Positions 5,386 to 62,232 of a stretch of DNA of 64,000 nt are shown here, piece after piece. The DNA comes from Chiloscyllium plagiosum (Eukaryota), in the NCBI RefSeq assembly GCF_004010195.1, contig NC_057719.1, positions 12,785,872-12,849,871 of the forward strand, in the 5' to 3' direction. The number at the start of each line of letters is the position of its first letter. Position 1 is the stretch's first letter. A program made the position numbers and the translations under genes. Under the pieces are notes generated by a model, which was not told where the DNA came from, made no database searches, and was given only the letters and a program-made list of their open reading frames with translations.

Positions 5386-6128
5386 TTCTGTTGTTACACA
5401 CTTTTATTCCAAAAACAGTGTTGAGCTTTCTAAATTATTTGAACTCATTAGAGATATCCCCCTTCCAATATTTTGACTGTAGGATTTTCATATTGACCAG
5501 ATCTGACCAGTTGAGTAAACATAATTTTGTCATTACAAGTGTAGGTAAAGGTACTATAGTCCCAGTCTCTCATCAGAAAGAGACAACTGATTGTTGAGAG
5601 GTATAGGGAAGGAATTTTGGAGTTTAAGGACCAGGTAACTGAAGGCAAGACCTCCCAGCAGGTCTGGTACCATCTGTTGAGTGCTGACTAAGAGTCACTG
5701 GACTCAAAGCTTTGACTTTGTTTTACTCTTCACAGATGCCAGACCTGCTGGATTTCTCCTGTACTGGTTTTCTTAATCATTTCATCATTGGGAGGTCTTG
5801 CCTTCAGTTACCTGGTCCTTAAACTCCAAAATTCCTTCCCTATACCTCTCAACAATCAGTTGTCTCTTTCTGATGAGAGACTGGGACTATAGTACCTTTA
5901 CCTACACTTGTAATGACAAAAATATGTTTACTCAACTGGTCAGATCTGGTCAATATGAAAATCCTACAGTCAAAATATTGGAAGGGGGATATCTCTAATG
6001 AGTTCAAATAATTTAGAAAGCTCAACACTGTTTTTGGAATAAAAGTGTGTAACAACAGAAGTAGAGTGGTGGTGGAGGATTGCTTTTCAGACTGGAGGCC
6101 TGTGACCAGTGGTGTGCCATAAGGATCA
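5318..6128. repeat. 340-bp inverted duplication (5318-5657 / 5789-6128), 131-bp spacer
   Basis: Arms are reverse complements with one mismatch seen. Mirrored ORFs 5448..5648 (-) and 5798..5998 (+) differ by one residue. Confidence 0.95.
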
Positions 6129-8109
6129 CCTGCTCTGTTTCCCCAACACATTCTGTTTTGTTTCAGATTTCCACAGTTCTATGGAATGATTAAAATGGAA
6201 GATGCACATGGGTCCAGATTAAAAGGACTGCACCCCACTGTTGTAGGGGTGGAGCAGATTGTGGTGATAGCGAGTGATGAGGTCTTGAAGGTATTTGTAA
6301 ACAAGGCTTTTAAAGCTGGACGGGGAACAGCGACATTGCAGTGATTTTATTACATGGCTTTCTGGATCCTGTACACCTTCAGATCACTGAAGCCTTGGGT
6401 GACTTGAATGCTGCCAGTAAAATTCTCAAGAATGTGCGCATTTCCAAATTAGATTAGATTTTATGAAACAAATGTATCTGGCAGTTCGGAAAGGCGTGCA
6501 GAAGTTTTAATTTTTATGCTATTTCAGCAACAGTATGGTGTCACACTCTAATGGTTCCAAGACCATGCACAAAGTTGTTGAATATTTCTCCACATTGATT
6601 CATTGTTCGAAGGAACATAGAAACATAAGACCAGTAACACCCCACTCAGCCCTTGAACTTGTTTCATGTGTATTTGCTGAACCAATGGAGTATTTAGCTA
6701 AATATTGGATAACTAGGTGTATTTGGCATATTTTGGTGAGCTTTCTATGTTTTGTCATGATTCATTGCATTTTATTTTCACACCAATGCTAGGATGAGTG
6801 GATCAGGTGACTGTTTGCATTGGGTGGGCTTTGATCTTGCATTTGATTGAGTTTTGTGGTGTATGTAAACAGGAGTTAGAATGTTTGAATGGGTTTGGCT
6901 GTTGATAACGTTGAGTTAATTCCATGACATTGATGTTATATTCGATTGAGATTGACACATTTTTTTTGGATTCAGGCCGGGTTAAGTAAATTAATTGCGA
7001 AGGGTTATTGTGTAGATTGATTGGAAAATTGAGTGGGTTAATGAAGTATGTGGTAATATGGAATTGATGGCACAAATTAAGTGGGCTTTATTATTGGTCA
7101 ACTCATTCAAGTGGACATCATAGGTATATATGTGGATTTTGGAGGTATTTTGTCTAGATTTACAGCTGCTTTACTCCCAAATGTTGATGTTTTTGTCAGA
7201 TTTGACATATTTTGTGGATTTTCCTTCATATTTTGAATCTAATGGTCTCAATGGGTTAATTTGATTAAATTCAGTGCATGTTGGAATTGGTTAGCTAAAT
7301 GTGACAGTGTATCAGCTGGTGTATTAAGTCCATAAAACATAGGAGCTGAAGTAGGCCACTCATTTCATCAAGACTGCTCTGCCATTCAATGAGATCATGG
7401 CTGATCCGATAATCCCCACTTTCCGCCTTTTCCTTATAACCCTTGAATCTCTCACTGATTAAAAATCTGTCTGTCTCAGCCTTGAATATACTTAATGGCC
7501 ATCACTATGCATTAAACAACTCCATAGATTCACTACTCTTTGAGAGAAGAAATTCCTCCTCATCTCTGTCCTGACTGGGCGATCCCTTACTCTGAGATTA
7601 CCTCCTGTTATTCTAGGCTCTTCTACAAGGGGAAACAACCTGTCTGCTTCAACCCTGTCAAAGCCTTTAAGAATTTTATATATTCAACAAGGTCACCTCC
7701 CACTGGGTGCAGGCCTGAAGTACTGAGCCTTTCCTCATAAGAAAATCTCTCCATCCTCAGAATCAGCATTGGGAACCTTCTCCAATGGCTGGATATCCTT
7801 CCTTATATGAGAGAACATAAACTGTTCACAGTACTCCATTTTGTCACATACGTGGACACATATTTTGCTTTCTGGTCAATGATCTAGATCTGTAGGATTA
7901 TTTTGGTGTCCTTCCTTGAGTATTTTGAGTCAGTTTACTGCTGTATTTCGTGTACCCAGATAGGTGTGATGATGGCATTGGATAAATTTGACTAAAATCA
8001 TTAAATCATTAAATAAAGCAGTATAACTGGAGACCATTTAGACTATTGTAGCTGTTTCAACTCTTTGAAAGGACTGACCAGTAAGCTATGCAAGTACATT
8101 CCTTTCAAG

Positions 8110-8480
8110 AATATATAAACACATGCATCCACTCCCTCCAGCACTGATGCTCAGCAGCAGCAGTGTGTACTATCTACAAGATGCACTGCAGAAATTCACC
8201 AATGATCCTCAGACAGCACCTTCCAAACCCATGACCACGTCCACCTAGAAGGACAAGGGCACCAGATACATGGGAACAGCACTAACTTCAAGTTCCTCTC
8301 CAAGTCACTCACCATCCTGCTATTCCTACACTGTCGCTGGGTCAAAATCCTGGAATTCCCTCCATTAGGGCAGGTAGACTGCAGTGGTTCAAGAAGGCAG
8401 CTCACCACCACCTTCTCAAGGGTAGCTAGGGATGGACAATAAATGCTGGTATGCTCACATCTCATAAATGAATATAGAAA
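8110..8480 (+). mobile_element. 3' end of a second LINE family (L2/CR1-group); related copies near 31855-32305, 52650-53420, 20860-21240 (-)
   Basis: Recurrent cagtgtgtactatctacaagatgcactgcag...cagcaccttccaaacc...ctagggatgg(g)caataaatgctgg. Confidence 0.7.
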
Positions 8481-8669
8481 AAAATATTATGGTTGATGCA
8501 CAGTGGTGTACTGTATTTGAGGGCATTAGAAATTTAGGAATGGTGTCCTGGTGCATTTGTCAGTTCTTGTTGGATCTGGAGGAACATTATAAATTGGTTT
8601 GCTGACATGCTGTTGGGCAGACTTTGAGAATGCTACAGTATATGGTTACATTTGTGGGAAAGTGGGAAT

Positions 8670-8875
8670 TGGTTTAGCTCAATTGGCTGGATTGTTGGTT
8701 TACAGCGCAGCATGATTCCAACAGTGCAGGTTCAATTCCCATCACCGGTTTGAGGTTACCATAAAGGACTCTCCCCTTCCCTCACCTGAGGTCTGGTGGC
8801 CCTCAGGTTAAATCACCACCAGTTGCTTCTCTCTCTAATGAATGAGCAGCCTCTATGGTCTGGTAAGACTATAGT
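8670..8875 (+). mobile_element. tRNA-derived SINE, third family; copies near 36200-36385 and 62650-62860
   Basis: tttagctcaattggctgg...ggttcaattcc head and shared cctgaggtctggtg..ctcaggttaaa body. Confidence 0.65.
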
Positions 8876-15102: not shown

Positions 15103-15279
15103 TCGGAGAAAGTGAGGACTGCAGATGCTGGAGAGTCAGAGTTGAAAAGTGTGGCGCTGGAAAAGCACAGCCGGTCAGGCAGCATCCGTGGGACAGCAAT
15201 CCTGATGAACGCCTTATACTCGAAACGTTGACTGTCCTGCTCCTTGGATGCTGCCTGACCGGCTACACTTTTCCAGCAC
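15103..15279 (+). mobile_element. Palindromic Penelope-derived mini-element with hammerhead-like motif (15202-15229)
   Basis: Perfect 15-bp TSD tgtgtctgttttaac (15088-15102, 15280-15294), inverted arms gctggaaaag...ggcagcatcc / ggatgctgcc...ttttccagc, CTGATGA...GAAACGTT. Confidence 0.8.
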
Positions 15280-18115: not shown

Positions 18116-18316
<201 letters not shown>

Positions 18317-22079: not shown

Positions 22080-25000
22080 TATGGCTTTTGATAGAGTGAT
22101 GTGATGGTCCTGTGGGATGTGGGAGATTAGGGAGAATTTCAATGTTCCTGGAGATTGTGTGTATTGGATTTGTTGAAGCGAGTTAGAGGCAGTGAAGAAT
22201 TTACAGGTACTGGGGGTGTAATGGTTGGCAGTTTCAGGAAGGACAGAAAACCATAGAAACTGTCAGGTAGGTGGATTACCTCGAGGAAAGGTAGGAGAGG
22301 AAGGCAGATAGTGAAGGAGTCTCCTGTGGCTGTCCCCCTCGCAAACAAATATGCCCTCATAGAGGTACAGGACTGGCAACTTAATGTTCCAAGGTATAGA
22401 TGCTATAGGAAGGATAGAAAAGGGGGCAAGAGAGGTTGGGGGCATTTTTGGTTAATGATAACATTACAGTTGATTAGATTCCCCTACAGTGTGGAAACAG
22501 CCCTTCGGTCCAACAAGCCCACACCGACCCTCCAAAGAGTAACCCACCCAGACCCATTTCCCTTTGACTAATGCACCTTACACTATGGGCAATTTAGCAT
22601 GACAAATTCACCTAACCTGCACATCTTTGGACTGTGGGAGGAAACCGGAGCACCCAGAGGAAACCCACGCAGACACAGGGAGAATGTGAAAATTCCACAC
22701 AGACAGTTGCCCGAGGCTGGAATCAAACCTGGGTCCCTGGAGCTGTAAGGCAGCAGTGCTAACCACTGAGCCACTGTGCCACCTGTACTTCAGGAGGATG
22801 TTCCTGGGAGAACGTCCAGTGAAGTTATTTGGGTGGAACTGAGAAATAAGAAAGGAATGATTACCTTATTTGGATTGTACTAACGGCCTCCCAATAATCA
22901 GCGGGAAATTGAGAAGCGAATATGTAAGGAGATCGCAGACATTTGTAAGAATAATAGGATTGTAATGGCAGGGGATTTTAAATTTCCAAACATAGACTGG
23001 GACTGCCATAGTGTTAAGGGCTTGGATGGAGAGGAATTTGTTAAGTGTGTACAAGAAAAGTTTCTTATTCAGTTTGTGATGTACCTACTAGAGGAAGAGC
23101 AATACTTGACCTACTCTTGGGAAATAAGGCAGGGCAAGTGACTGACCTGTCAGTGGGGAACACCTTGGGGCCAATGATCATAGTACTATTAAAATAAAGT
23201 TAAAATCACACAACACCAGGTTATAGTCCAATAGGTTTATTTGGAAGTACAAGCTTTCGAAGCACTGTTCCTTTGTCAGGTAGCTAGTGGGGCAGGATCA
23301 TAGGACACAGAATTTATAATAAAAGATCAGTGTCAAACAACTGATGCGATATATTGAACAAATCTAGATTGCTGTTAAGTCTTTCACCTTTTGGGATGGG
23401 TTGCAGGTTTCAATTCATTAATATGTAAATCTCAGAACTTCTTTCAAGTTTTAAAATAGTTATGGAAAAGGATAGAGCTGATCTAAAAGTTAAAGTTCTA
23501 AATTGGAGTAAGGCCAATTTTGACGGTATTAGACAGGAGTATAAGACAAAAGTTGATTGGGAGAGGCTATTCACAAGCTGTTGTAAAGGGACAGTTGGAA
23601 AGTGGGAGGCCTTTAAAAAGTGAGGTAACATGAGTTCAGAGACAGTTTGTTCCTTTAAGTGTGAAGACCAAGACTTATAGGTGTAGGGAATGCTAGGTGA
23701 CATGAGAAATTGAAGCTCTGGTCAAGAAAAAGAAGGAGGCACATGTGAAGTATAGACAGCTGGGATCGAGAGAATCCCGAGAGGACTATAAGGGCAGTAG
23801 GAAACTTAAGAGGGAAATCAGGAGGGCAAAAATGAGTCATGACATATCTTTGGCAAATAGGGTTAAGGAGAATCCGAAGACATTCTACAAATACATTAAG
23901 TTGAAAAAATACCTAGGCAGAGAATAGATCAACAAGGCAGTCTATGTGTGGAACCAGAGGAGATGGGTGAGGTACTAAAGGAATATTTCGCATCAGTATT
24001 TACTGTGGAGAAGGATATGGAAGCTAGAGAACTTGGGGAATTAAATAGAGATCTGTTGAAAAGTATCCATATTACAGAAGAAGGAGTCCTGGAAGTCTTC
24101 AAACATATAAAGGTGGATAAATCCCCAGGACCTGATCAGGTGTATCCTAGAACTCCACGAGAAGCTAGGGAAGTGATTGCTGGGCTCCTTGCTGAGATAT
24201 CTGTATCATCAACAGTCACAGGTAAGATGCCGGAAGTCTGGAGGTTGGCTAACATGGTACCACTATTTAAGAAATGCGGAAAGGAAAAGCCAAGGGAACT
24301 ATAGATTGGTGAGCTTTATATTGGTGGTAGGCAAGTTGTTGAAGGGGATTCTGAGGGACAGGATTTACATGCATTTGGAAGGGCAAGGACTGATTAGGGA
24401 TAGTCAATATGGCTTTGAGCACAAGAAATCATATCTCACGAACTTGACAGTAATTTGAAGAAATAATGAAGAAGATCGATGAGAGCAGAGCGATGGATGT
24501 TGTCTATATGGACTTCAGTAAGGTGTTCGACGAGGTTCCCATGGGAGACTGGTTAGTAATGTTAGATCACCTGGCATACAGGGGGAGCTAGCCAATTGGA
24601 TACAAATTGGCTTGAAGTAGAAGACACAGGGTGATGGTACAGGGTTGTTTATCGGACTGAAGCCTGTGACCAGTGGTGTGCCACAAGGATCGATGCTGAG
24701 TCTGCTGCTTTTCATCATTTAGACTAGGCTAGATTCCCTACAGCGTGCAAACAGGCCCTTCGGCCCAACCAGTCCACACCAACCCTTTGAAGAGTAACCC
24801 ACCCAGACCCGTCTCCCTCTAACTAATGTAACTAACACTATGGGCAATTTAGCATGGCCAATTCACCTGACCCACACATCTTTGTGACTGAGGGAGGAAA
24901 CCCACGCAGACACAGGAAGAATGTATAAACTCCACACAGACAGTCACCCAAGGCTGGAATCGAACCTGGGACCCTGGTGCTCTGAGGCAACAGTGCTAAC

Positions 25001-28329: not shown

Positions 28330-30445
28330 GGTCCATCTAAGAAGAAAGTTTAATATAAAATGGCTAAATGCATTCTTGTTTACAACTGCAAATGATAAGA
28401 GCATTTGCCTTGTATGTCACCAAAGTAAAAAGAGGAATTATTACAACGCCACACAACAATGCTCAGTAACTCTGAGAACAGTTTTCCCTTGAACAGCATG
28501 CTTCAGACAAAATGTTGATGAGCTGCAGGCTGATTTGAAAACAGATTTTTGTTTTGAAAATGAACAGTGAAAGGTAAGGACTGCACTTAAACATCATTTC
28601 ACACTTGCCATCTTCTAACAAAACACAAGTCATTCACAGATGACCAAATAATTGAAGAAGCAATACCTATGGCTGCTAACCCTTTATTCTAAAGACTTTA
28701 AAAACAAAAAAGAAATAACAACAGCAATCCAGTACTTGGTACTTCCAGAGAAGCAAAACTGAGTAGAATCCTTCAGCAACTACAGCAGGTCCTGAAGGAT
28801 TGTGAATGCTTCTTACTGGAGCTCAACGAATCCATCATCATGACCAACACAGCCCAGCTAATTGTTTTTGTGCACATGGTTTTCAAAGACATACAACTAA
28901 ACAGGATCTTCTCACCCTTTTCTCCCTTAAAGAGAGAACAAGAGTTGAGGATATCTACAGCAAATTCAAAAGGTTTATGCTTGAGATAAACATTCCATTT
29001 AAGAAAGTGACTTTCATCACAACTGATGGCACATCAGCCATGCTTGGTGCAAACGCCGGTTTTGTTGCATTTTGCAGAAGTGAGCCTGATTTCCCGTTTT
29101 GTTAGTTACCACTTTATATTCCACCAGCAAGAAAAGTTATGGAATTTTCTCATGTCATACAAGTTATTGTTCACTGGATACTTACAAGAGCTCTTCAAGT
29201 ACTGTTGATCCGGACTGGATTATCTTGACATTGCCTATGCTGAACTAATCCTCCATGCTGAAGTGAGTCGTTAAGTTGAAAGAAGGTCCTGCATAGATTT
29301 TTAGATCTGATACCGAAATTGTCACTTTTCTTAGATTAAAAGTGAAATGCTGTTAGGTGATGTGTGGTTGCCTGACTTTAGGTGCTTTACAGATATAATG
29401 TCAAAACTGAACGAGCTGAACTGTGAACTGCAGGGAAAGGACAGAGATTTAGTTCATATGATCAGTGCTGGGTAGGCACTCAAATTGAAACTGGGTCTGT
29501 AGTTCTCCCAATTAAAAAATGTAAAACGTATTATAATATAATTTAATAGAAATATAGTGAGAGATGTGCAGGTTAGGCAGATTGGTCATACTAAATTGCC
29601 CATAGTGTCCAGGGATGTGTAGGCTCGTTGGATTAGCACAAGGAATGCAGGGTTAGAGGGATAGGGTGGGAGTGGGTGGATGGACAGGTGCGTGACTGGG
29701 TGGGATGCTCTTCAGAGGGTGGTGTGAACTCAATGGGCTGAATGGCCTGATTCCACACTGTAAGGATTCTACGATTCTATGATTTTATAATGTTACAACT
29801 CTTTCTGAATCTGGAGAAAACGTTAGGGAAAAAAAAAATCAAAAACAAAGAAAAATAGTTCCACCCAGAAAGCTGTGCACACTTGAAGAAGTTAACCGAG
29901 GAATTCAACAAATGATTTCAGGATTTAGATGTGATAAAAAAAAACATCAAGTCTATCGCAAATCCGTCAGGTGTTTGCTTTACAAAACAGTGGAGTTAAA
30001 ATGGAGATAAGTACAATGCAAAATGATATTGAGATGGAAATCTGAACAACAGACACAAATTTTTGGAACTGTAAACAGAAACGAGTCTAGATTAGAGTGG
30101 TGCTGGAAAAGCACAGCAGGTCAGGCAGCATCCAAGGAGCAGGAAAATCGACGTTTCAGGCAAAAGCCCTTCATCTAATCTAGACTCTGATTTCCAGCAT
30201 CTGCAGTCCTCCTTTTTTCCTAACAGAAAAAAGTACCCACCTTGTATTTAAAGTGAAAGCTTACTTTGACTGCACATATCTCTGAGACAGTGTTCTTCCA
30301 AGTAAAGATATTCAAATCCAAGTCTCACACCCTTCTCATAGACAGCTATTTGAATGGTCTGTATATACCTAGCAGTCTCAAACTACAAACCAGACTTCAT
30401 TGGCACTGGCAGATAATGTGCAGACAAAATTATAGCACTGACACT
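28330..30445 (+). pseudogene. Decayed hAT (Charlie/SPIN/GTF2IRD2-like) transposase, interrupted by a SINE (29562-29783) and a Penelope mini-element (30082-30221)
   Basis: Motifs across frames: KSICLVC, TAQLIVFV, ITTDGTSAMLG, SYHFIFHQQ, KVLHRF, LNELNCELQGK, CTYL/ETVFFQVKIFKSK (C-terminal dimerisation-like). Multiple stops and frameshifts. Confidence 0.85.
30082..30221 (-). mobile_element. Penelope-derived mini-element with truncated hammerhead
   Basis: TSD aacagaaa (30074-30081, 30222-30229). Minus strand gatgaagggcttttgcctgaaacgtc. Confidence 0.75.
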
Positions 30446-31095
30446 TGGTGAGTAGAAGACAAAGTGAATAAATGTACATACTTGCTTTGAGATTTATTTG
30501 GCATTGCTAAGAAACTTTGTTTTTTTTATTTTCTTTAGGGTAGATTCTGGGTTGCACTTCAAGTCCAACTCCCACCATGGTGTTAGAGGCAAGGTGCTAG
30601 CATGGATAGAAGCTTGGCTGACTGGCAGAAAGCAGACAGTGGGGGATAGGCATTCTGGCTAAGTTTGCAGTCAATACAAAGATAGGCAGAGGGACAGGTA
30701 GCATTGAGGAGGCAGGGAGGCTGCAGAAGGATTTGGATAGATTAGGAGAGTGGACAAAGAAGTGGCAGATGGAGTACAACGTGGGAAAGTGTGAGGTCAT
30801 GCAATTTGGTTGGAAGAATAGAGGCATGGATAGAAGCTTGGCTGACTGGCAGAAAGCAGATAGTGGGGGATAAAAGGGACCTTCTCAGGATGGCAGCTGG
30901 TGACAAGTGGTGTTCTGCAAGGATCAGTGTCGGGACCACAACTTTTTACTTTATACATTAACGATCTGGAGGAAGGAACTGAGGCATTCTGGCTAAACAA
31001 AGTTTCTTAGCAATGCCAAATAAATCTCAAAGCAAGTATGTACATTTATTCACTTTGTCTTCTACTCACCAAGTGTCAGTGCTATAATTTTGTCT
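30422..31095. repeat. 101-bp perfect inverted duplication (30422-30522 / 30995-31095)
   Basis: agacaaaattatagc...gaaactttgttt reappears reverse-complemented inside the neighbouring CR1. Confidence 0.95.
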
Positions 31096-34800: not shown

Positions 34801-35429
34801 GATGTGTAATTTTGTACTTAGACTTTGAGGCATTTGCTGATCACCTTATTTTCCCATCCAAGACATAATGGCAGTTCACATTGCCTTTATGTTTAATCTG
34901 GTACAGATTTCTTTTGAATCTTGTTAATACATCACCTTTGCAAAGCAGGTTAACAGGAAGAGGGGTGGCACGGGCAAGAGAATAGATATGTCTCTGGAGT
35001 TTGTCTATCTCGCGTCCTTGGGCTTGGATAGTATAATTGATTTTCCTCTGAGACCCGCAGGACTCCGGGTGTCCTCATGCATGAAATCCTGAAAGGTTAG
35101 TTTTTAGGTATAGCAAGTAATTAGGAAAGCTAATAGAACGTTATCAGTTATCATGAGGAGAACTGAATACAGAAGTAGGGAGGTTGTGTCTCAGTTAGAC
35201 AGGGCACGGGTGAGACCGCATGTACAATATTAAGGTCCCTATTTAATGAAGGATGAAAATGCATTGGAGGCAGTACACAGTTCAGAGCTGGAGTCATATC
35301 TGAATGATTGTTGGGAATTGTCTTATGAGGCAATCTAGGTTAGTCTTGTATTCATTGGAATTTAAAGAATGTGAAGTGACTTGATTGAAATGTATCAAAT
35401 CCTAAGGGACTTTGCCAGAGAGAGCTTAC

Positions 35430-35740
35430 CCCAGTTCCAAACTTCCAGCTCAGCACCGTCCCCATGACCTGTCCTACCTGCCAATCTCCCTTCCCACCTA
35501 TCCACTCCACTCTCCCCTCTGACCTATCACCTCCATCCCCACCCCCATTCACCCACTGTACTCTTTGCTACCTTCTCCCCAGCCCCATTCCCCACCCCCC
35601 CATGCCCATTTATATTTCCACCCTGGATGCTCCCTGCCTCTATTCCTGATGAAAGGCTTTTGCCCAAAACATCGATTTTCCTGCTCCTCGGATGCTGCCT
35701 GACCTGCTGTGCTTTTGCAGCACCACTCTGATCTAAACAT
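35430..35740 (+). mobile_element. Penelope-like 3' UTR fragment with mutated hammerhead (35646-35673)
   Basis: C-rich tract followed by ctgatgaaaggcttttgcccaaaacatc, homologous to 61980-62230. Confidence 0.75.
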
Positions 35741-37100
35741 TACCAATACACCACCACTATCTCCGAGTAAGTAGTGCTCTCACTCATGAGTCACAAGGTT
35801 GTGAGATTAAGTTCCACTTCAGAGAGTTGAGTAGAAACATTAAACCGAGGTCCTGTTTGTCCCTTCAAGTGAGTCATGGAGTGATAGAGTTGTATAGCAT
35901 GCAAACTGACCGCTTGGACCAATTCATCCATGCCAACCAGATATCCTGAATTAACCTAATCCCATTTGCCATCATTTGGCCCATATCCCTTCATTACTCA
36001 ATTTCAAAGAATCTCAGGGTACGTTTCCCTGGTGTTTTGAACAACATCTGAAACAGCTGATTGAGAGGTTATTTCAGAGTGGTTTGAATGAGCTTGCTGT
36101 GTGCAAATTGGTTGCTGCCTTTCTCACAAAATATTGCATTGTACCCTTCAAAAAATATTTTTCCTGGCTATAAAAGGCTTTGGAAATCCTGAAAGGTTGG
36201 CTTAGCCCCATTGGCTTGGCAGGTGGCTTGCAGTGCAGCGTGATACCAACAGTGCAAGTTCAATTCCTATACCAGCTGGAGTTACCATGAAAGTCCTGTC
36301 TTCTCAGTCTGGCCTAAGGCATGGTGGACCTCAGGATAAGCTGCCTACCAGTTGTAATGGGAGAGCAGTATAAGACTATGTTAACTCACCTCTTACCTTT
36401 ATCGTGAAAGGTGCCATATATATACAGATCCTTCTCTTGCTATCAAGAAATGAGTCCCTACAACGATCAAAGATTTTTTGTATAGAAGATTCATAAAAAT
36501 GAATAGCAGTTCATCAAAACTATAGAAAGTGGAAGGGGCAAGACAGTTCCCTAAGTAGCCACTTTGAGAGGTTGGATGCTCCAATACAGCTGTTGCTCCC
36601 CAATTGCTAACTTTAGCCCAGCCTGCATGTTATAATTGGTTACTCATTCCTTTAGTTTATGTTTTGAGAAGGGATTTATCCATTCCATTACTTGGTACAC
36701 TCCACTCCAGGTGTGCAGAGACGGACTGAGTTAGCAGAACCTGGATTGAGGAAGTTGATGTGGACAGCATTTCCAATCTATTTGAAATGGAAGCATACAC
36801 CTCATTCACTAAAGTTGCATCCAATGTTGGAGGCAAGAGCTGAATTGAACCATTAACACATCGGGTGGAACCTCATAGGGGGTCCAAGTGACATGGCAGA
36901 ATCAAATGTGAAATCTAGTGAAGTCTATCTCAATGTTGGCTCCACCTTTTACACTTTTTATATGTTTCTCTGTCTGGGGATGATTGCCTGCCTTATTTAT
37001 GGCCTAATTAATATTCTGTGGTCTGACCTACTAAACACACCAAAAAGTCAGACCTCAGGAAAACACACTGTGCTAACGAGAGCAGGCACCTGGTAGGTTC

Positions 37101-37128
37101 CTGATGAAGGGCTTTTGCCCGAAACGTC
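37101..37128 (+). ncRNA. Minimal hammerhead ribozyme motif, intact core
   Basis: CUGAUGA-A-GGGC[UUUU]GCCC-GAAA-CG-UC: all core nucleotides, 4-bp helix II, palindromic ACGU in place of helix III. Confidence 0.75.
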
Positions 37129-37190
37129 GATTTTGCCTGTCCTCGGATGCTGCCTGAATTGCTGTGCTCTTCCAGCACCACTAATCCAGA
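37101..37190 (+). mobile_element. 90-bp Penelope-derived insertion starting at the hammerhead core
   Basis: 13-bp TSD acctg(g/t)taggttc at 37088-37100 and 37191-37203. Confidence 0.8.
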
Positions 37191-38179
37191 ACCTGTTAGG
37201 TTCAGCTCACTGCTTGCTCCCAGTGACCTCCATGTTATGTATGATCGAACAGCATCTCAGGACATGATCCTCAGGTACCCATTGCATACATCCTTGCTGA
37301 CAGACATTGGCATCTGACATTTGCCAATCCCTCATGACCATCATGGCACCTCACTCTCCAATAGCAGTGTAAGAATCTCAGGAAGGACAGACTAGCATTA
37401 TGGGCTGCATTGTGGCAGCTAGTATTGAATAGCTTCAGCAGCGACACTTTGCGAATAGGACCAGGTATCCAGCTGATGGATTGGATCAAGCTGCACTGCT
37501 GGGCCGTACACTAGCTCTCTCAGTGCACTCTCACTTAGTCCCCAGCTACATCAATCACATCATTAAATTTTAAACCATGCAAGTTGACTTTGATTGGTCA
37601 AGGGATTGCCCTAAGAAATAGAACAGTGAATGGCTGTCACCTATTTTGTTGAGTTGAAAAATAAACAAAGCTTGGCCGTTATCTGTCAGTGTTATTAGAT
37701 GCATTCTCCATGACAATCCTTCTATCAACCAGTGTCCATTTGCCAATCGTTCTGCAATCTCATTTTATGCAGTATAAATATTGAATTTATCTTCTTGTGA
37801 AACATCCTGATGAGTTGAAGATGAAATTCTTTCAATTTCTGCTTCAATTTAAATGAGAGAGAGAGTGATAGAGAGGGAGAGAGGTGCTTTCCATGCTTTT
37901 TCTGTTTTCAGTCCATATTGCCTTTTTGCTTCTTTGTGTGCTCAAAGCAAGCTGCTGAAATATGGCTCATTTTTATATTCCAAATCTGGCTCCGTTGTCT
38001 TTTTCTAACTGAACACTCTACTGATATATTTTCATCTCCAATATGTCAAGATATCATACAATTGTGGGCAAAAGAAGAGAAATACTTTTCTTGAAACTGA
38101 GTTTCAAGGCTTCTTGAATAAAACGATAATTCTGAGGCAACCTGGCTGTATATTTAATAACAACCAAGGATGTTGTAAA

Positions 38180-38345
38180 ACAGAAACAAAAACAGAAGTT
38201 GCTGGAAAAGCTCAGCAGGTCTGAGCAACTTCTGAGGAAGTTTCTGAGGAAGGGTCGCTGGACCTGAAACGTTAACTCTTATTTATCTTCATGGATGCTG
38301 CATGACATGCTGAGCTTTTCCAACAACTTCTGTTTTTGTTTCTGA
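38180..38345 (+). mobile_element. Palindromic Penelope-derived mini-element with hammerhead motif (38244-38273)
   Basis: Arms cagaaacaaaaacagaagttgctggaaaagctcagca / tgctgagcttttccaacaacttctgtttttgtttctg. Core CUGAGGA-A-GGGUC[GCUG]GACCU-GAAA-CG-UU. Confidence 0.8.
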
Positions 38346-39110
38346 TTATATGTTTTCCATGTTGGTTGCTAGGGCTTGTCAAGTGATCACTACAGCCATT
38401 TTAGGTCAATGGTGTCCATTTTTAATCCACATAAATCTCAGGTACTAAAATCAAATGATGGCTTTTGAATATTGATGTGCATTTTCACTAAGAATGTATC
38501 ACACTGCATTCTCCAATTCCCGCCACACATTAAAAAACCCACAAATACAAGATGTGTTCAACTGGTCCATCTAGTCAGTCCTTCCTGGATGTCATAATAC
38601 ACAGATACAAGTTTCATATGAAACCTAAATTTCATCCTCTTTAATTTTCTGAGGGGCTGGGAGAGAGTAAAACACTTGGACCAATTTTGGTGAGAAAAAT
38701 GAAAAGTTATATTCCGAACTCCAAAGCCAGAAAGTAAACTTATTCATTGTCAATTTGTAGATGTTGAACTAGATAGATAGATTCTTGCAAAGTGGATGTG
38801 AGGAGTGTTGGATCAGCCATGATCCTATTGATCAGTACAGCAGGCTCGAGGGGCCGAACAGCCTACCCCATTCCTATTTCTTGTGGTCTATGGTCTTATG
38901 GACAGCAATTCCAGATGAGTCAGTGTCTTAGGCCTCTTGAGCTTCTCACTCTGCTTCTCCACAATCACACCAGTGAGATGAATAACTTCCAATGTAGGAA
39001 TCAGAGAGGCCTTTCCTCTCCACTTTATAAAATAAAGTAATTTTTTGATCTAAATTATCTGTGCTCCCAGTGGTCAGGCATGAGGATGTATTAGTAATTG
39101 TTTAGTTTGA

Positions 39111-39204
39111 GGAAGGATCACTTGACCCGAAAGGTTAACTCTGATTTCCCTCCACACATGCTGCTGTACACGCTGAGCTTTTCCAGCAACTTCTGTTTTT
39201 GTTT
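39111..39204 (+). mobile_element. Penelope-derived mini-insertion whose 5' junction falls within the hammerhead core
   Basis: 17-bp TSD gtaattg(t/g)ttagtttga at 39094-39110 and 39205-39221. Decayed core tgagga-aggatcacttgaccc-gaaa. Confidence 0.75.
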
Positions 39205-41139
39205 GTAATTGGTTAGTTTGATGCACTGTATAAATTTCCCCACTTGCTTAGACCTACAGTGTGTGGCTCAGTTTAAAGTATATAGAGAATCAAACTTATG
39301 TTTGGCCATGCTCATATTTCTAGGTATTAGACTTCCAACTCTGAACTATTGTGTCCATTCCACTTGACTTCTCCCTGTCTCTCAGTTTTTCACTTACACA
39401 CCCATCGCAGTGATTGATTAGATAGTCTGTTCCTGGCTTTGTTCTCAGTCCATTGCTGAGCAAGGAATGAGACTGATTCAGTGTGTGCAGCCCATCACTT
39501 CATTAATCGTTAAAGAAGGGCATTCCTACTTACATTCAAACAGAGGATGAAGCTATTTCTCTTTCCATTAATGGGGACTTCGAATACAAGATAAAGGAGG
39601 CTAAGCTGAACCGATGCAAGACAATAGTTAGATCTTAGATGGAACACTGTGTACAGTTCTGGATGTCAAACCTCTGGAAGGATGTGAATCCATTTCGGTC
39701 AGTGCAGAAGAGGTTTATGAGAATGATTCCCGGAATGAGACACTTTATTTCTGAGGATAGGTCAGAGAAGTTAGGACTGTTCACCTCGGAGAGAAGGAGG
39801 TTAAAAGGTGATTGAATTAAAATTTTCAAAATCGTGAGACGTTGTGAGAGGAGACAGTGAGAAACCATTCCCAATCATAAACAGATGAAGAGTAAAAAGG
39901 CACAGGTTTAAAATGATTTTTAAAAGAAGTCAATATGATGTGAGAAGAAACATTTGCACACATTAAGTGGATCAGCTCTAGAATGCACTGCCTGGAAGTG
40001 TGGTGGAGGCAAGTTTAATTGAGGCATTCAAGAGGGTAATTTGATGACTATTTAAATACAAATAATGTACAGGGAAAAGCTGGAAGGATAGCACCAAGTC
40101 ATGGTACTTATTCAGAGAGCTTTTGCATGAGATGGCCCATTCTGTATTGCAATCCTGATTAGTCACACTCGATTTGGAGGGCCAATACACTCCGTTCTGA
40201 AGATCAATGCAATCTGTTTGAAGGACCTACACTCTGTGACCAGTGGACAACATACTGCCATTGGAGCACCTTAAAGGACTATCAATGGGAGAAGTAACAT
40301 CGAAGTAACATTGGAGGCCAGAATCATATTTCCTACAGTATGGAAACAGGCCCTTTGACCCAACAAGTCCACACCCACCTTCCGAAGAGTAGCCCACTCA
40401 GACACATTCCCCTACCCTATACTTACCCCTGACTAATGCACCCAACACTACGGGCAATCTAGCATGGCCAATTCACCTGACTTGCACATCAATTATTACA
40501 TTGGACAGAAGCACACTGTCTTCTGGGCCTGCCATCTTTAGGAAGAGATTATGAATTGGTTTTCTAAAAGACATGTTTCCATGTTGTTCTTTCAGTTCTG
40601 AGACCCAGTTGAAAGGTAACCATTGCTGATTTGAAAGTCCATGATATGTAAGAGTCCTTTTGTGGAATTACTTTGATCAGTAGCCACAGAGAGCACACAG
40701 TGCCCAGAGAATTTATTGTCAAAGTTGTTTCAAGTTTCTTTTGTACAGGGGAAATGACAATGCTAATACATGGAGAGACCTTTTTACTGCCTTAGGCAAT
40801 GGTTTCTGAGTTCATATCTGCATAAACATCTGGTGAACATCCGCTGCACTCTCTCCACACTGAGGTAACAGGCCAGGACTGCATACATTACCACAGGTAT
40901 AGGTTAGCTAGTAGTCTGTGCAATTGAAGCAAGGCTTTGCTCATGTACTCAAATCAATACTTTCATAGGACTTTCCTTCCGAATTGCTTGCTGCGTCACC
41001 ATGGTAGCAGGCCGTGACTAATGAACACGGATACCTAGGTTCCTTTGCACATCAAGGCTTTCCAATCTCTCAACATTTAAGAAATGCTGTTCACCTCTGT
41101 TCTGCCTACCAAAATGGATAACCCTTACCCACACATTTT

Positions 41140-51638: not shown

Positions 51639-51908
<270 letters not shown>

Positions 51909-53573
51909 TAGAGGGTTAAAAAAAAATCCATGTGTTGGGGGGACTGGGCTTCATGTGTTGACTGGTGGATTTGGCTGCAGCAGATAATGCAAAAAGAGAC
52001 CATTTAGCCCATTACTTCTGTGCTAGCTCTTGTAAACAACTGTCCTGTCAGTCTGTCTCCCCCGCTCTTCCCTCTTCAATTCCTTTTTGAAGGTCACTAT
52101 TAAATTTGCTTCCACCTTCATTTCAGGCAGTGACTCTCAGATCTTCATAACTCATTGTGTACTAAAGTCTCTCCCCCTCTGATTCTTTTCCCAATTATTA
52201 TTTGACATCAAAGTGGCTGAATGTGACATCTGTGACCCCCAGCAAGCCAGGAAGTGAGGGTTGGGGGATTTGGAGGAAGCTCTCCTCTGGTTAGTCATAC
52301 CTGGCACGGAGGGAGATGGTTGTGATTGTTGGAGGTCAGTTGTCTCAGCTGACACCTCTGCAGGGGTTCCCCAGGATAGTGTGCTAAGTCTTCAGTCGCT
52401 TAGACAATGGCGTCTCACAGAACCAGTAAAATAGGAGTAGGCCATTCAGCCCTTTGAACCTGCTGCATTGTTCAATATGATCATGGCTAGTTATCCAACT
52501 CAGTGTGCATACCCTTTGATCTTGTTAGCCCTAAGAACTATATCTAGCTCTTTGAAAACATTCAATGTTTTGACTTCAACCACTTTCCTTGGTAGCACGT
52601 TCCACATTCCTTGCATCTGGTAATTGCACAGTGTTCAGCACCATCTGTACCCCCTCAGATACTGAAGCAGCTTGTGTCCATGCACAAGATCTGGCTTGGG
52701 CTGACAAGTAACAAATAACAAATGGCCATCTCCAACAAGAGAGAATCTAAACATCCCTCCTTGATGTTCAATAGCATTAACGTTGAGGCCATCAACATCC
52801 TGGGGGTTACCATTGACCAGCAACTTAAACAACACCAGCCATATAAATACACCAAGAACAGGGCAGAGGCTAGAAATTCTGTGGGGCAGCCAGCTCACTT
52901 CCTGACTCACAAAGCCTGTCCACCATCTCCAATGCAGCAGTCAAGAGTGTGATGTAATACCCCCACTTGCTTGGATGAGTGTAGCTCCAACAACACTCAA
53001 GAAAGCTTGACACCATCCAGGACTAAGCAGCCAACTTGATTGGCATCCCTCCACCAACATCAAGATTCATTCTCTTTATCACCAAGTTACAGTGGCAGTA
53101 GGGTGTACTACGTACAAGATACACTTCAGAAATTCACTAAGGCCCCTCCAATAGCACCTTCCAAACCTGCGATCTTTACCATCTAGAAGGACTAGGGTGG
53201 CAGTAAATTGGGAACACCATCACCTGCAAGTTCCCTTCCAAGCCCCTCACCATCGTCTCTTGGAGATATATCACTGTTCCTTCAGTGTCACTGGGCCAAA
53301 ATTCTGGAACAACATTGTGGATGTCCTTACACCCAAGGATGGCCATAGTTCAAGACAGCAGCTCACAACCACCTTCTTGTGAGCAAGTGGAGATGGGCAA
53401 TGGTCATAACCCATGAATGAAACACTGTCTTTTGGTTACTGACCCTCCTGATTCTAGAAACAGTTTCTCCTTATTTTATTATAACTCCGCGTACAGCCCG
53501 ATATTTACAGGACAGAGCATGATGTTGATGTCTATGCAAGTTTTGAGGAGATTTGTAGCTCATGTTGAAGTTC

Positions 53574-54054
53574 TGGATGTAGGTTACTCACTGAGCTAAA
53601 GATTCATTTCCAGACATTTAGTCACCCAACTAGGTAACATCTTCGGTGGGCCTCTGGGCGAAGCACTGCTGATAATTCCTGCTATTTATATGTTTGGGTT
53701 TCTTTGGGTTGGTTATGTCATTTCCTGTGGTGATGTCATTTCATGTGGTGATGTCATTTCCTGTTCTTTTACTCAGGGGTGGTAGATGGGTTCTAACTCG
53801 ATGTGTTTGTTGATAGAGTTCTGGTTGGGGTAAACACATCGAGTTAGACCCCATCTGCCACCCCTGAGTAAAAGGAACCGGAAATGGCATCACCACAGGA
53901 AATGATATCACTAACCCAAAGAAACCCAGACATACAAATAGAAAGTAGGAATTATCAGCAGTGCTTCGCCCGGGAGCCCACTGAAGATGTTATCTAGTAG
54001 GGTGACTAAACGTCTGAAAATGAACCTTCCAGTTCAGCGAGCAAATCTACATCC
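53574..54054. mobile_element. Penelope-like inverted terminal-repeat pair forming a ~480-bp hairpin, two mirrored hammerhead motifs
   Basis: About 53574-53808 is the imperfect reverse complement of about 53832-54054. ctgaaga-tgttatctagtagggtgac-taaacgtc at 53981-54014 and its mirror at about 53612-53645. Confidence 0.8.
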
Positions 54055-55619
54055 AATTGATGTCTACTTTTGCTTTGAATGTGAAAATGACTCTCATGTT
54101 TTTGCAATGACCATTTTCTGGGTAACAGAAGGTTATATGTTTTGGCCTCAAGCACTTCTGAATCCAGTTCAAAATTCTGAAAGAATTCAGTGCTAAACTT
54201 ATTTTGAGTTTTCTGTATGGACACATGATGTAGAATTACATTGTCCTAGGTATCTGACTTTTTCATTGTAAGAGACACAAGGCACAAGGTTAACTGTTCC
54301 AAGGTAGAGCTCATTAATAATTTCAAAAGGCAATTGGAGACCTGAGGGAATTGAACTTGCAGGGCTCTGAGGATGGATCAGTGGACTGAAGCTGACTGGA
54401 TTGCTGTACAGAAAGCAGAGGCTGAATGGCCTCGTTTTGTGTTGTAAAGTGAAATTAAGGTTGAGAATGTATTATTCTGTAACCAACCGTGCTTTACTAG
54501 CCCCGGGCAGTTTGCCAGAAAGGAGAATATATAATGTCCTTCCTCTCTCACTGGTGAACACCAGTACACTCTCGCATGGAGGTAAAATAACACTTTCTAC
54601 TATCGCGTTCTTAGCTCTGCTGAAGTCAAACATCTCAGGTTGGGAACACAACAGTTAGAAAATTCATAGTAGGAGTAGGCTATTTGGTCCCTCAACTGTG
54701 CTCAGCCATTCAATAAGGTCATGCCTGATCTGAATTGTGGCTGTGTAGTTCACTTTACTGTCTGCCCCTCCTCTAACTGTTGACTCTCTTACCAAGCAAA
54801 TGATGTCCAGATTCTATCTGAACATATTTAATAACCCAGCCTCCACTACTCTGTATAGAACAGAGTTCCGATTCGTGTCCCTTTGAGGGGTAAAATATTC
54901 TTCTCCTCTCAGTATAAAAATGTCATTAAAGATTTGCCGCCTTGTTAAAGACTCCTCCACAAGGGATAACATCCCCTCCATGTCTGAAATAATAACCTTC
55001 TATCAACTGGGCTGGAGAATTGCTTAAAATACTGAACTTTCAATGAGTTTTCAATTCAATCTGAATGGATAAAATGCAAGGTCCTCTGTCAGGTCCAGTG
55101 AGGAATGGAATCCAAGTCCTAATTAGATGGACTCTGTCAGATTGGGACAAACTGATTCAGTGCTTGATGGAAAATTCGTTAACAGTCCCGCAGCAGTAGG
55201 TTCACCTGTAAAATTCCCTGAGCGTCCTTCCCATTAACCTCCTGCCTGCCCCATCCCCATCACTCTCATCCCCAGTGTAGGCCTTTAAGTAGACGTTCAT
55301 TGCCTACTTTAGGGCCACATTCCAACCCCCTCCTCGCATTCCGACCCCACCACCACCACTTCTCCCAAGCCTCAGTTCTGAGGAATTCAGGGGAAGGGGA
55401 CACATCCAGCAACTCATCCTTTACCAGGCTATGGGCAGGAATAGAAGGGGGGAAAGTGCCATCCTCAAGGGTCTGATATGACAAGTGCTCCCAAACTGTT
55501 TCCCTTGCCCTGTCCTCTCCATTCACTTCCATCACCCTCCAACCCATCCTCTCATGATGTTTTAAGGTGGGGTTGTGTGAATCTGATTGGGACAGAGGGA
55601 CCAGGAATTACTCATAAAG

Positions 55620-58210: not shown

Positions 58211-58224
58211 GTTACCATAGCAAC
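58211..58224. promoter_or_regulatory. Canonical RFX X-box GTTACCATAGCAAC
   Basis: Full palindromic-type match to the GTTRCCATRGYAAC consensus in non-repetitive DNA about 750 bp after the VSX2 stop. Confidence 0.55.
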
Positions 58225-58499
58225 AGTAACTAGTGATCGGCCTGACATAAAACAATGGAAGGTTTCAGTTTGCAGGCTCTGGTTGTGAGATGCGTTCACA
58301 AGAGCGGAACTTTTTAATGTCACATAAGTAATATTTTCACAATGCATTGGTTTTTCTCATTTATTCCTAGTTTGCTCACCTCACCTCTATTTTTCTGAAA
58401 GATGATGTTGCCCTCCACTCCCAAAATGGGAGTTCTACAGGGTGCTGATAACCTTCTACTTTCTTCAATGATTTGCTAACCTTCCTGCCATATTTCTTA

Positions 58500-59410
58500 G
58501 ACATTGGTAAGGCCACACTTGGACTACTGTGTACAATTCTGGTCACCCTGCTACAGGAAGTATGCCATTTAAATGGGAAAAGTTGCAAAAAAGACTTATA
58601 GGGATGTTACCAAACTGGAAGGTTTGAGATACACAGAGAGATTGGACAGGCTGAGACTTTCTTTCCTGGAGCGTTGGAGGCTGAGGGGTGACCTTACAGA
58701 GGTTTATAAAATTATGAGGTGCATGGTTAGGATGAATAGCCAAAGTCTTTACCCCAGGATATGATGTGGAAGTGCCCGTGTTGGACTGGGGTGGACAAAG
58801 TTAAAAATCACACAACATCGGGTTATCGTCTAACAGGTTTATTTGGAAGTACGAGCTTATCAGACTCTGACTTGAAAGAAGTTCTGAGATTTACATATTA
58901 ATGAATTGAAACCTGCATCTCCATTCTAAGTGATTAAAGACTTAACAGCAATCTAGGCTTATTCAATACATCGCATCAGTTGTATGACACTTTGATTTTT
59001 TGCGATAAATTCTGTGTCCCATGATCCCGCCCCACTGGCTACCTGATGAAAGAGCAGCACTTCAAAAGCGTGTACTTCCAATTAAACCTGTTGGACTATA
59101 ACCTGGTGTTGTGTGATTTTTCACTTTTCTCCCAGGGTAGGGAAGTCCAAAACTAGAAGGCAAAGGTTTAAGGTGAGAGGGGAAAGATTTAAAAGGAATT
59201 GGAGAGTCAACCTTTTCACTCAGAGGGTAGTGCATGTAGGGGCAAGTACAATTACAACATTTAAAAGACATTTGGACAGTTACATGGACAGGAATGGTTT
59301 AGAGCAATATTGGCCAAATGCAGGAAAATGGGACTAGTTGAGTTTAGGAAACCTAGCTGGCATAGATAAGTTGGGCTGAAGAGCCTGTTTTTGTCCTGTG
59401 TGACTCCATG
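58500..59410 (+). mobile_element. CR1 3' fragment split by a Penelope-like element (about 58763-59127) with inverted ends and decayed hammerhead (59043-59071)
   Basis: ORFs 58573..58764 and 59113..59337 flank the insert. Inverted ends aaagttaaaaatcacacaaca / tgttgtgtgatttttcacttt. Confidence 0.8.
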
Positions 59411-61059: not shown

Positions 61060-61250
61060 GAGCATAGAGAAGATATTGGAAACCCCTCTGTCCAAGGCCC
61101 CGGTATACCTTTCCTCTTCTGCCTCCGAGGTGTTTCCCACATCGGACCAGCCCAGCCTCCAGGTGACACCTAGCTGTATCATCATCAACAAGGGGGAGAT
61201 TACCCCCAGCCTACTCCCATTGGAGCAGTCCTTCCCCCACTTGCCCTGTC
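61060..61250 (-). mobile_element. Possible highly decayed Harbinger (HARBI1-like) transposase remnant
   Basis: Only weak motif similarity (NTSEAEEERY, LDRG) in ORF 60976..61470. A similarly weak piece lies near 33090-33300 (-). Confidence 0.3.
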
Positions 61251-61699
61251 GATCCTCATTCTCCACCCTCCTTACTCGACTTTGGTACTGGTTTCCACAG
61301 ACTACACCGTGTTGAGGACTGGCTGCTATCCCAGACTTTGCCACCCATCCCTGTGGGTGCTGCTGAAGCAAGGGAAATGTTAGCTGTTTGTTTGGTTGAT
61401 TCCAAAGACCAGGCATCCTCTTTGATAGTGGGGGTGTGGGTGTGGTGGTGGGCGCAGTGCAGAAAGCCATTCAACCAGCTTGCATTCTAATGGCCATTAA
61501 AGGCCTGGGGAGTGAGTTGAGCAAAGCCAAGTGAGCTCAGGTCTGACAACAATACCAGAGCAGGGAGGTTGATTCCTAGCTCAACTTCAGCCCACCTTCA
61601 ACCTCCTTAAATGGCACTGGATTAAAATTGCCTCCAGTCCCGACCAGATACAATGCCCACATGACTGACAATTTTAGCACAATCATAACGTTAACCTGT

Positions 61700-62232
61700 G
61701 CCCTGTGCCAGGGAACACCTCTGGGACACCCGCACCAACCAACCCAACCGCCCCGTGGCTGAACACTTTAACTCCCCCTCCCACTCCGCCAAGGACATGC
61801 AGGTCCTTGGCCTCCTCCATTGCCAGACCCTGACCACACGACACCTGGAGGAAGGGCGCCTCATCTTCCGCCTAGGAACCCTCCAACCACATGGGATGAA
61901 TGTAGATTTCTCCAGCTTCCTCATTTCCCCTCCCCCCACCTTATCTCAGTCCCAATCTCCGGATTCAGCACCGCCCTCTTGACCTGCAATCTTCTTCCCG
62001 ACCTCTCCGCCCCCACCCCCTCTCCGGCCTATCACCCTCACCCTCACCTCCTTCCACCTATTGTATTCCCAGTGCCCCTCTCCCAAATTCCCTCCCCCCT
62101 ACCTTTTATCTCAGCCCGCTTGGCACACCAGCCTCATTCCTGAAGAAGGGCTTATGCCCGAAACGTCGATTCTCCTGCTCCTCGGATGCTGCCTGGCCTG
62201 CTGTGTTTTTCCAGCACCACATTTTTCAACTG
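61700..62232 (+). mobile_element. Penelope-like retroelement 3' end: GIY-YIG endonuclease C-terminal fragment, C-rich UTR, hammerhead
   Basis: ORF 61698..61982 (REH...PVAEHFNSPSHS..D..VLGL...R..EE..LIFRLGTLQPHGMN) is typical of the PLE endonuclease tail. Confidence 0.85.
62140..62167 (+). ncRNA. Minimal hammerhead ribozyme motif, intact core
   Basis: CUGAAGA-A-GGGC[UUAU]GCCC-GAAA-CG-UC, downstream of the PLE endonuclease fragment. Confidence 0.75.

Follow-up and report, generated by a model that had tools for sequence, protein, structure and literature searches.

Do short hammerhead-bearing repeats in a shark genome form a class of mobile element of their own, or are they the ends of larger elements? 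This question is raised by a 64,000-nucleotide stretch of the Chiloscyllium plagiosum genome (contig NC_057719.1, positions 12,785,872 to 12,849,871; hereafter the window, whose own coordinates are used throughout). In it, a first-pass annotation recognized about 12 minimal hammerhead ribozyme motifs, identified them as those of Penelope-like elements (PLEs), and proposed that the copies make up a separate non-autonomous, ribozyme-centered class. We find the identification supported, by three intact motifs together with decayed copies, and the separate class unsupported: subfamilies are common to short and long copies, most cores are decayed, there are no tandem units, and the insertions have an architecture already published for PLEs, all of which argues against such a class. 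Instead, the copies are probably dead-on-arrival 3′-end products of autonomous, endonuclease-positive PLEs belonging to at least four families. A shark is thereby added to the hosts of PLE minimal hammerheads, and their density in it is very high.

Three intact hammerheads among decayed motifs

All 12 annotated positions hold hammerhead-like strings, and a mirror motif at 53646 (−) is likewise a hammerhead-like or decayed string. Only 3 of the 12, however, fit the full minimal hammerhead, with a complete core, a paired helix II, and the unpaired base 9.1; the others are decayed or cut versions. A strict descriptor (whole core and a helix II of at least 4 bp) returned three sites in the 64-kb window, at 37101, 38244, and 62140, compared with a mean of 0.075 and a maximum of 1 across 40 shuffles. 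When one core mismatch was allowed, the window yielded 10 sites versus 4.3 in 12 shuffles, and 4 of the 10 were absent from the first-pass list. Counting the mirror with the 12 listed motifs (13 in all), 13 of 156 core positions are non-canonical. Five motifs have no departure, two of them (15202 and 37807) with a broken helix II, and G12 is lost in five. At 30175, C3 and U4 are missing because an inversion junction inside the core cuts the motif.

Other parts of the first-pass description held to various degrees. The palindrome ACGU or AGCU at the helix III position is kept in 7 of the 13 motifs, including all three intact ones, but is gone elsewhere. Helix II stems differ among families yet remain paired, in keeping with the reported covariation, but the GAGUC/GACUC example comes from 5684, a copy with three core departures. 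For the predicted cleavage positions, C37128 and C62167, the annotation's numbering holds. At least three sequence families had been claimed, and we found four: A (15202, 30175, 35646, 37101, and 62140), B (5684, 38244, and 39107), C (23279 and 59043), and D (53981 and its mirror). A lone hammerhead-like string at 37807 to 37832 (+) has a weak helix II, no palindrome, and no relative in the window; it passes solely a descriptor with a 3-bp stem, and we regard it as a doubtful hammerhead.

Helix I, 4 to 5 bp in metazoan PLE minimal hammerheads, consists at 62140 of 2 bp, a mismatch, and then 1 bp, and at 37101 it is longer only by way of the target-site duplication (TSD). When two identical copies were cofolded, the lowest-energy fold was not a dimeric hammerhead, such folds being a weak guide for non-canonical cores. 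An Rfam scan of the window at E values up to 10 gave five weak matches, with no hammerhead family among them. At the level of sequence, the reading of these motifs as PLE minimal hammerheads is supported, and most copies in the window would be unable to cleave.

Further motif-like strings (14970, 57436, 33006, 41540, 54367, 33335, and 7760) and relaxed-descriptor sites (31358, 42748, 46870, and 13613) were dismissed as chance or other repeats, and a string at 50184 belongs to another repeat.

Family A is joined to a GIY-YIG endonuclease frame

The annotation had tied the motif to PLEs through a GIY-YIG tail preceding the copy at 62140, and this connection is borne out. The copy (61711 to 62229, +, 519 bp) is a tail-less family A PLE 3′ end comprising the end of an endonuclease open reading frame (ORF), a C-rich pseudo-long terminal repeat (pLTR), an intact minimal hammerhead, and a 3′ module. 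The hammerhead core (62140 to 62167, +) has a 4-bp helix II, the palindrome ACGU, a helix I of 2 bp plus one, and a predicted cut after C62167. From the motif, the element extends 430 nt upstream, into a contiguous open frame at 61716 to 61952 (+) that encodes the C-terminal part of a GIY-YIG endonuclease and whose nearest relatives are reverse transcriptase (RT) plus GIY-YIG proteins. The frame has 80% identity over 76% of its length (E = 1.9e-21) to a 359-residue protein labeled Chiloscyllium punctatum, which carries an RT-like YIDD motif and a GIY-YIG match below the Pfam cutoff. [quoted passage not shown]

A Pfam scan of the 79-residue tail by itself gave no match. A search of cluster-representative proteins with the same tail gave 549 matches at E values up to 0.001; among 14 relatives scanned (of 150 listed), Pfam GIY-YIG was found in 10 and RVT_1 as well in 2. 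A C-x5-CxxC linker is present in six of the seven close relatives listed, the seventh (P0001) having CxxC only, and the broader C-x2-5-CxxC form occurs in 13 of the 32 matches with sufficient upstream sequence. A C-x2-5-CxxC linker upstream of the endonuclease has been assigned to Neptune (PMC8557442). Judging from the linker of its relatives, family A may be of the Neptune type, which we offer as a lead. No ORF linked to the motif was found for families B and C within the window. Family D ends in a 20-residue piece that presumably resembles PLE endonuclease ends.

Two database proteins, P0011 and P0003, fuse a PLE endonuclease end to a seven-transmembrane (7TM) receptor or to DUF4518; these fusions are probably gene-model read-through into PLE fragments.

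Insertion architecture

Forward arms terminate at a fixed point, 45 to 65 nt past the cut site. In all four hairpins with a readable tail state (15202, 30175, 59043, and 53981, from families A, C, and D), the inverted arm alone extends about 30 to 40 nt further, as a tail; the tail state is unreadable in both family B hairpins (38244 and 5684), which were excluded from this count. Published PLE insertions have an adjacent inverted truncated copy and an optional 30- to 40-bp tail at one end (PMC3846280 and PMC8557442), and in an anole element, two internal RT start sites account for the one-sided tail (PMC11167929). The one-sided tail and fixed forward ends seen here follow this published PLE insertion pattern. 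Every locus in the window is single or head to head, with no head-to-tail units among them. When the window was searched with profiles of the sequence that follows the cut site, every direct copy recovered had a hammerhead, save a family B-like remnant at 6127 to 6172. Each copy holds a hammerhead because the motif lies within about 100 nt of the fixed PLE 3′ end.

Six short forward arms (15202, 30175, 37101, 38244, 39107, and 5684) begin between about 4 nt before the core and 2 to 4 nt inside it. Inverted arms end 1 to 3 nt from the cut site (15202), about 7 nt before it (59043), 15 to 50 nt after it (38244, 5684, and 30175), or far upstream (family D). The starts of the two family C copies, at 23449 (−) and about 58870 (+), agree to within 1 base and form a second fixed 5′ boundary.

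A 20-base core pattern was also sought in metagenome contigs, where it marked at least 123 loci (at least 127 motifs). The loci listed have the same core, a short 3′ module, an optional tail, and head-to-head pairs. Among them, helix I averages 3.7 bp in 126 motifs, and head-to-head pairs account for 12 of 66 copies, a set limited to clusters with at least four members and to copies with 100 nt of upstream sequence. None of the 123 loci matched the window by blastn, and they are used here purely for outside comparison; a 32-base family A pattern had no match in the metagenome contigs, and a looser core pattern had none in viral contigs. The architecture is general, and the sharp 5′ boundary may be family specific.

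Four loci in non-shark metagenome contigs (L038, L045, L102, and L113) carry head-to-head hammerhead pairs only 25 to 35 nt apart, with a tail on one arm.

The 5′ boundary of family A

Three public DNA runs, two from organism A and one from organism B, supplied contigs that were aligned to positions 61701 to 62300 at 80% likeness, giving 121,220, 88,745, and 114,758 aligned contig records. With 121,220 contigs of one run matching these 600 bases, family A is very abundant, which supports the density asserted by the annotation. In run X1, 10 of 11 ORF-tail bins had a depth of 1.05 to 2.86 million; depth was 0.61 million at 62101 to 62120, 2.1 million at 62121 to 62140, and 11.1 to 15.7 million at 62141 to 62180; contig depth is not a copy number, and part of the step comes from subfamily divergence and inverted arms. 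Among the 18 loose-end rows listed of 2,104, all 11 upstream rows lie at 62132 to 62145. Across the three runs, 629, 429, and 741 contigs end at 62136; 501, 309, and 515 end at 62137; and 675, 409, and 680 end at 62145, where the unaligned letters continue to follow the element as far back as about 62136. The flanks of these rows are AT-rich with an agreement of 0.3, as unrelated insertion sites would give, and rows at 62132 and 62135 are C-rich and represent sister subfamilies running on. Truncation in family A is non-random, with 5′ ends clustered 3 to 4 nt before the core. The short copies are not the randomly truncated ends that the annotation had named as the outcome adverse to its proposal.

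An initiator-like motif at 62134 to 62140 (+), which may act as a promoter, has its A+1 at 62136, and this is the main boundary at which short family A copies begin in the public contigs. Scored against the initiator consensus, such a motif with A+1 at the boundary is present in both long family A copies (chance, 1.3% per position); in the 35646 copy, it occurs at the same A+1 together with a TATA-like match at −33/−31. The letter before 62136 is by majority G in all three runs, while the element has C there and G is rarer in the window than A or T. All four distinct X1 joints into 62136 to 62137 with intervening letters end in G, the joints being listed with strand change or step back unstated. 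In full-length L1 insertions, cap copying leaves an extra G at the 5′ junction (PMC11702581), and PLE transcripts are reported to start within the pLTR (PMC6765202 and PMC2377424). Given the initiator-like site, the G at −1, and the pLTR starts of PLEs, we suggest that the boundary is a capped RNA start; that short family A copies are cDNA run off to that start stands, in our estimate, at about even odds.

Several observations weigh against a capped start. The loose-end rows are a tool-chosen 18 of 2,104, and the three DNA runs share old insertions and so are dependent. The 62140 copy is without a TATA match at one mismatch, and a match of that quality falls in the 17-base slot 10% of the time by chance. 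For the rows at 62145, run X11 has G immediately ahead of ATT, and X1 and X13 have A. The two family C copies begin not next to the core but about 170 nt upstream of it, 37101 and 39107 join by microhomology, and the anole enzyme prefers ATT (PMC11167929). A comparison of family A with about 6% of RNA run X22 gave 0 reads, a sample that is no test of expression, start, or cleavage.

In an alternative that we consider somewhat unlikely, DNA repair or RNA structure sets the boundary: RT would stall once it has unwound the ribozyme or on reaching the C-rich pLTR, and the cDNA end would be joined through microhomology, either with ATT or TT at the target or, in hairpins, through the self-complementarity of helix I. 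The microhomology by which 37101 and 39107 are joined overlaps their TSDs, the sequence favored by the anole endonuclease is the one at 62136 to 62138, and a recurring opposite-strand joint, 62136/62168, falls on helix I. Microhomology leaves the G at −1 unexplained, however; many copies traverse the C-rich region (ORF-tail depth of 1 to 2.9 million in 10 of 11 bins), and the initiator-like motif lies exactly on the boundary.

Short and long copies share subfamilies

Could the short units be a self-renewing non-autonomous family, SINE (short interspersed nuclear element)-like or akin to retrozyme monomers, driven by an internal promoter and copied anew by PLE proteins acting in trans? The sharp 5′ boundary, the large excess of the short module, and the single 5′ end common to two family C copies favor such a family, as do the internal promoter of Drosophila Penelope (PMC2377424) and the existence of non-autonomous PLE derivatives (PMC8557442; bioRxiv 10.64898/2026.07.22.740005). 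Subfamily marks, however, are common to short and long copies. In the five family A copies compared, 15202 pairs with 62140 and 30175 with 35646: the last 22 nt of 15202 match 62140 best (15, versus 11 to 15), 62140 matches 15202 best (19/22), and the last 22 nt of 35646 match 30175 best (19/22), the match being weaker with the short copy as query. The copies include no tandem units, and most of their cores are broken. Moreover, direct short copies end ahead of the tail region, yet the anole protein requires RNA beyond both RT start sites (PMC11167929), which makes re-copying of the short copies appear doubtful. We judge a self-renewing family improbable.

The annotation had also proposed excess conservation of the core over its flanks as a check, and no significant excess was found: 2 of 56 core positions changed, versus 16 of 250 downstream (P = 0.54). 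CpG positions changed at 6 of 40, versus 21 of 341 elsewhere.

Some points count against reading the copies as dead 3′-end products. Outside CpG positions, the core has 0 of 46 changes versus 14 of 235 downstream (P = 0.14, a weak test), and some selection on the core is possible. The window holds no full-length element, and beyond family A the ORF connection comes down to the short presumed resemblance in family D, with none for B and C. Among the metagenome copies listed, an end lies no more than 30 nt from the core in only 18 of 66, and 37 of 66 extend past 100 nt, some pairs in this set being one locus counted twice.

Cleavage and the insertion junctions

Hammerhead cleavage itself might shape insertions if RT ran off the 5′ end of the cleaved RNA, leaving one arm that ends at the cut site. 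The opposite-strand joint 62136/62168, in which 62168 is the first base past the cut, occurs in all three DNA runs (5, 6, and 3 contigs), more joints run from 62167 and 62170 into 62136 to 62137 (their kind being unstated in the table), and the inverted arm of 15202 ends beside the cut site. Such joints are few compared with the hundreds of ends upstream of the core, however. Only one of six window hairpins ends at the cut site, no direct window insertion starts there, and anole ribozyme mutants insert normally in vitro with no reads ending at the cut (PMC11167929). Cleavage as the force that shapes these insertions is thus very doubtful, and a minor cleavage footprint in the junctions is possible. 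A splice acceptor was rejected as the cause of the 5′ boundary, since the five listed skips landing at 62118 to 62138 are without GT..AG ends and comprise 1 to 2 contigs each.

A model for the origin of the copies

If the copies are 3′-end products of autonomous PLEs, as we favor, a PLE protein would cut the target, and RT would start at one of two internal sites about 60 to 100 nt downstream of the hammerhead. Internal RT start was demonstrated in vitro for the anole element (PMC11167929); we infer it here from the fixed 3′ ends and the one-sided tail. As the copies show, the cDNA crosses the hammerhead, so that nearly every copy contains the motif, and as the contigs show, its synthesis halts at variable upstream points, in family A very often 3 to 4 nt before the core. 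The family A stop may be the capped 5′ end of a template RNA starting at the pLTR initiator, with the 90- to 100-bp unit being run-off cDNA. Were both target ends primed, one per start site, two cDNAs could join head to head and give hairpins with a one-armed tail; the hairpin architecture is directly visible in the copies, and two-ended priming would be our interpretation of it. Hammerheads would decay after insertion, CpG sites first. The ribozyme, if active, would work in the RNA of the parent element, as a dimer or with an element protein.

A stronger version, that most insertions of this shark PLE family are strong-stop-like, we advance only tentatively. In it, a capped RNA beginning 4 nt before the hammerhead would be primed about 95 or 130 nt downstream and run off at the cap. 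One strong-stop-like cDNA would then give the 93-bp unit, and two, primed at the two start sites from either end of one DNA break, would give hairpins with a one-sided tail; by cutting, the ribozyme would strip the element's own RNA of its cap and first 32 nt; PLE start and priming sites would be recorded naturally, and in very large numbers, across the genome; and the 62136/62168 joint might record ribozyme cleavage in vivo. More generally, if the 5′ pile-up is a capped RNA start, solo and hairpin mini-copies would be explained without a new element class, the ribozyme would lie at the very 5′ end of the transcript, and many natural junctions would be available for two-ended priming and in vivo cleavage. 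Published work leaves open what the hammerhead contributes to PLE transposition (PMC8557442 and PMC11167929), and the run-off model is the part worth testing.

Relation to known elements

Published work already covers this kind of element, its ribozyme variant, and its insertion architecture. Minimal hammerheads in the pLTRs of metazoan PLEs were described by Cervera and De la Pena in 2014 (PMC4209133), with thousands of single motifs in truncated PLEs and opposite-strand pairs in fish, coelacanth, and frog. The window motifs share with these a type I core, one unpaired base before helix II, G10.1-C11.1, a palindromic 15.2-16.2, and no helix III. They also share the occurrence of several families per genome, mostly as single motifs in truncated PLEs and with some opposite-strand pairs. 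They differ in having a helix II of 4 to 5 bp in families A to C rather than 7 to 8 bp, and a family A helix I of 2 bp plus one. The searched parts of that source and its supplements name no sharks and describe no sharp 5′ boundary.

As in Penelope/Poseidon, Neptune, and Naiad elements (PMC3846280, PMC8557442, and PMC11167929), the copies have a fixed 3′ end, 5′ truncation, a head-to-head inverted copy, a 30- to 40-bp tail at one end, TSDs of about 8 to 16 bp, and TATA-like and initiator-like pLTR motifs. Unlike in these elements, most window copies consist of nothing but the terminal module, and the ends of family A accumulate at a single site. Animal non-LTR retrozymes (LTR, long terminal repeat; bioRxiv 10.64898/2026.07.22.740005) are similarly non-coding, with type I hammerheads related to those of PLE pLTRs and dispersed monomers; that preprint reports retrozymes in its one chondrichthyan genome and cleavage in one of nine frog dimers. 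Retrozymes are defined by at least two head-to-tail tandem units, each with a full hammerhead, and by abundant small circular RNA, whereas the window copies are single or head to head and have PLE tails and TSDs. Because the window has no head-to-tail units, its copies fall outside the retrozyme definition.

In twin-primed L1 insertions, inverted 5′ parts arise from priming at both target ends. L1 offers a further likeness in the extra 5′-junction G derived from cap copying (PMC11702581). It differs in that L1 primes on the poly(A) end, whereas PLEs prime internally, so that run-off to the cap may be about 95 nt. Neither mini-copies of PLEs in sharks nor a 5′ pile-up at the hammerhead turned up in our literature search, whose reach stopped short of Dfam, Repbase, subscription papers, and part of the supplements; shark families may be listed in supplements of PMC4209133 or of the 2026 preprint that fell beyond that search.

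Individual copies, sizes, and target-site duplications

Sizes and TSDs were measured at 10 loci, a set that excludes 5684 and 37807. The annotation's description of the copies as 90 to 190 bp long applies to five of them (93 to 177 bp), but the other five are 254 to 519 bp. TSDs, also said to be general, are clear at four loci (15202, 15 exact; 39107, 16/17; 37101, 12/13; and 53981, 10/11) and marginal, with 8 to 9 matches and chance levels of 7.5% and 2.5%, at four (62140, 23279, 30175, and 59043), but none was found at the remaining two, 35646 and 38244.

In family A, the 93-bp direct short copy at 37098 to 37190 (+), with its intact core at 37101 to 37128, begins 3 nt upstream of the core in a TTC microhomology and is flanked by TSDs at 37088 to 37100 and 37191 to 37203. 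It lies in sense orientation within an intron separating two homeodomain exons. The TSDs of the 62140 copy are at 61703 to 61712 and 62230 to 62239 (9/10). A longer copy of 313 bp (35425 to 35737, +) has a core broken by G12>A. The 177-bp hairpin at 15103 to 15279 (+) has a broken helix II; its inverted arm plus tail spans 15103 to about 15199, ending near the cut site, and its forward arm begins at the core. The 141-bp insertion at 30082 to 30222 (−) consists of a short inverted arm with a tail and a forward arm cut inside the core, with a TSD of 8/9.

Family B comprises a hairpin of about 176 bp (38170 to 38345, +), whose intact core at 38244 to 38273 has a G-U pair closing helix II; a direct short copy of about 100 bp (39107 to 39206, +) that begins at the core, carries C3>T, and has a TSD overlapping its start; and an old copy at 5654 to 5775 (+) with a partial inverted arm. 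In family C, the copy at 23197 to 23449 (−) is about 254 bp long, begins about 170 nt before the core, and carries G8>A, with a TSD of 9/10. The 363-bp insertion at 58763 to 59125 (+), which has an inverted arm with a tail and a core broken by G12>A and U16.1>G, lies within a LINE (long interspersed nuclear element)-like fragment, and its forward arm begins at the same point as the 23279 copy.

Family D is represented by a 519-bp head-to-head pair (53540 to 54058, both strands) with arms of about 230 to 290 bp and a tail on the minus arm only. Both of its cores, 53646 (−) and 53981 (+), share G12>T, which is not a CpG transition, though the arms are only about 85% identical; the family D template may already have been dead-cored, or the arms may have converted each other.

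The host intron and neighboring repeats

Homeodomain exons lie on the plus strand at about 18170 to 18295 and 51680 to 51860, in a gene that we take from the homeodomain peptide to be the eye homeobox gene VSX2; a PDB search with the second exon gave no matches. The intron that splits the homeodomain (18296 to 51680) is about 33 kb long and is full of LINE-like and SINE-like repeats. Two intact sense-strand cores, 37101 and 38244, lie 1,143 nt apart in this one intron and have the same ACGU palindrome. A mixed dimer of the two on the pre-mRNA is conceivable, with helix I strands that match poorly. Across loci, 9 of 11 are in sense orientation (P = 0.07). Since two intact sense motifs persist in one intron with no sign of purging, these data suggest that a lone copy has little effect.

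An inverted duplication of 340 nt (5318 to 5657 and 5789 to 6128), whose arms have 1 difference and whose left arm continues a LINE-like fragment, encloses the old family B copy at 5684 in its 131-nt spacer and is followed by the B-like 3′ remnant. This duplication is either a recent templated inversion or an assembly artifact. Finally, a LINE-like fragment contains a 101-nt exact inverted copy of nearby intron DNA (30422 to 30522 and 30995 to 31095), which resembles a templated repair insertion.

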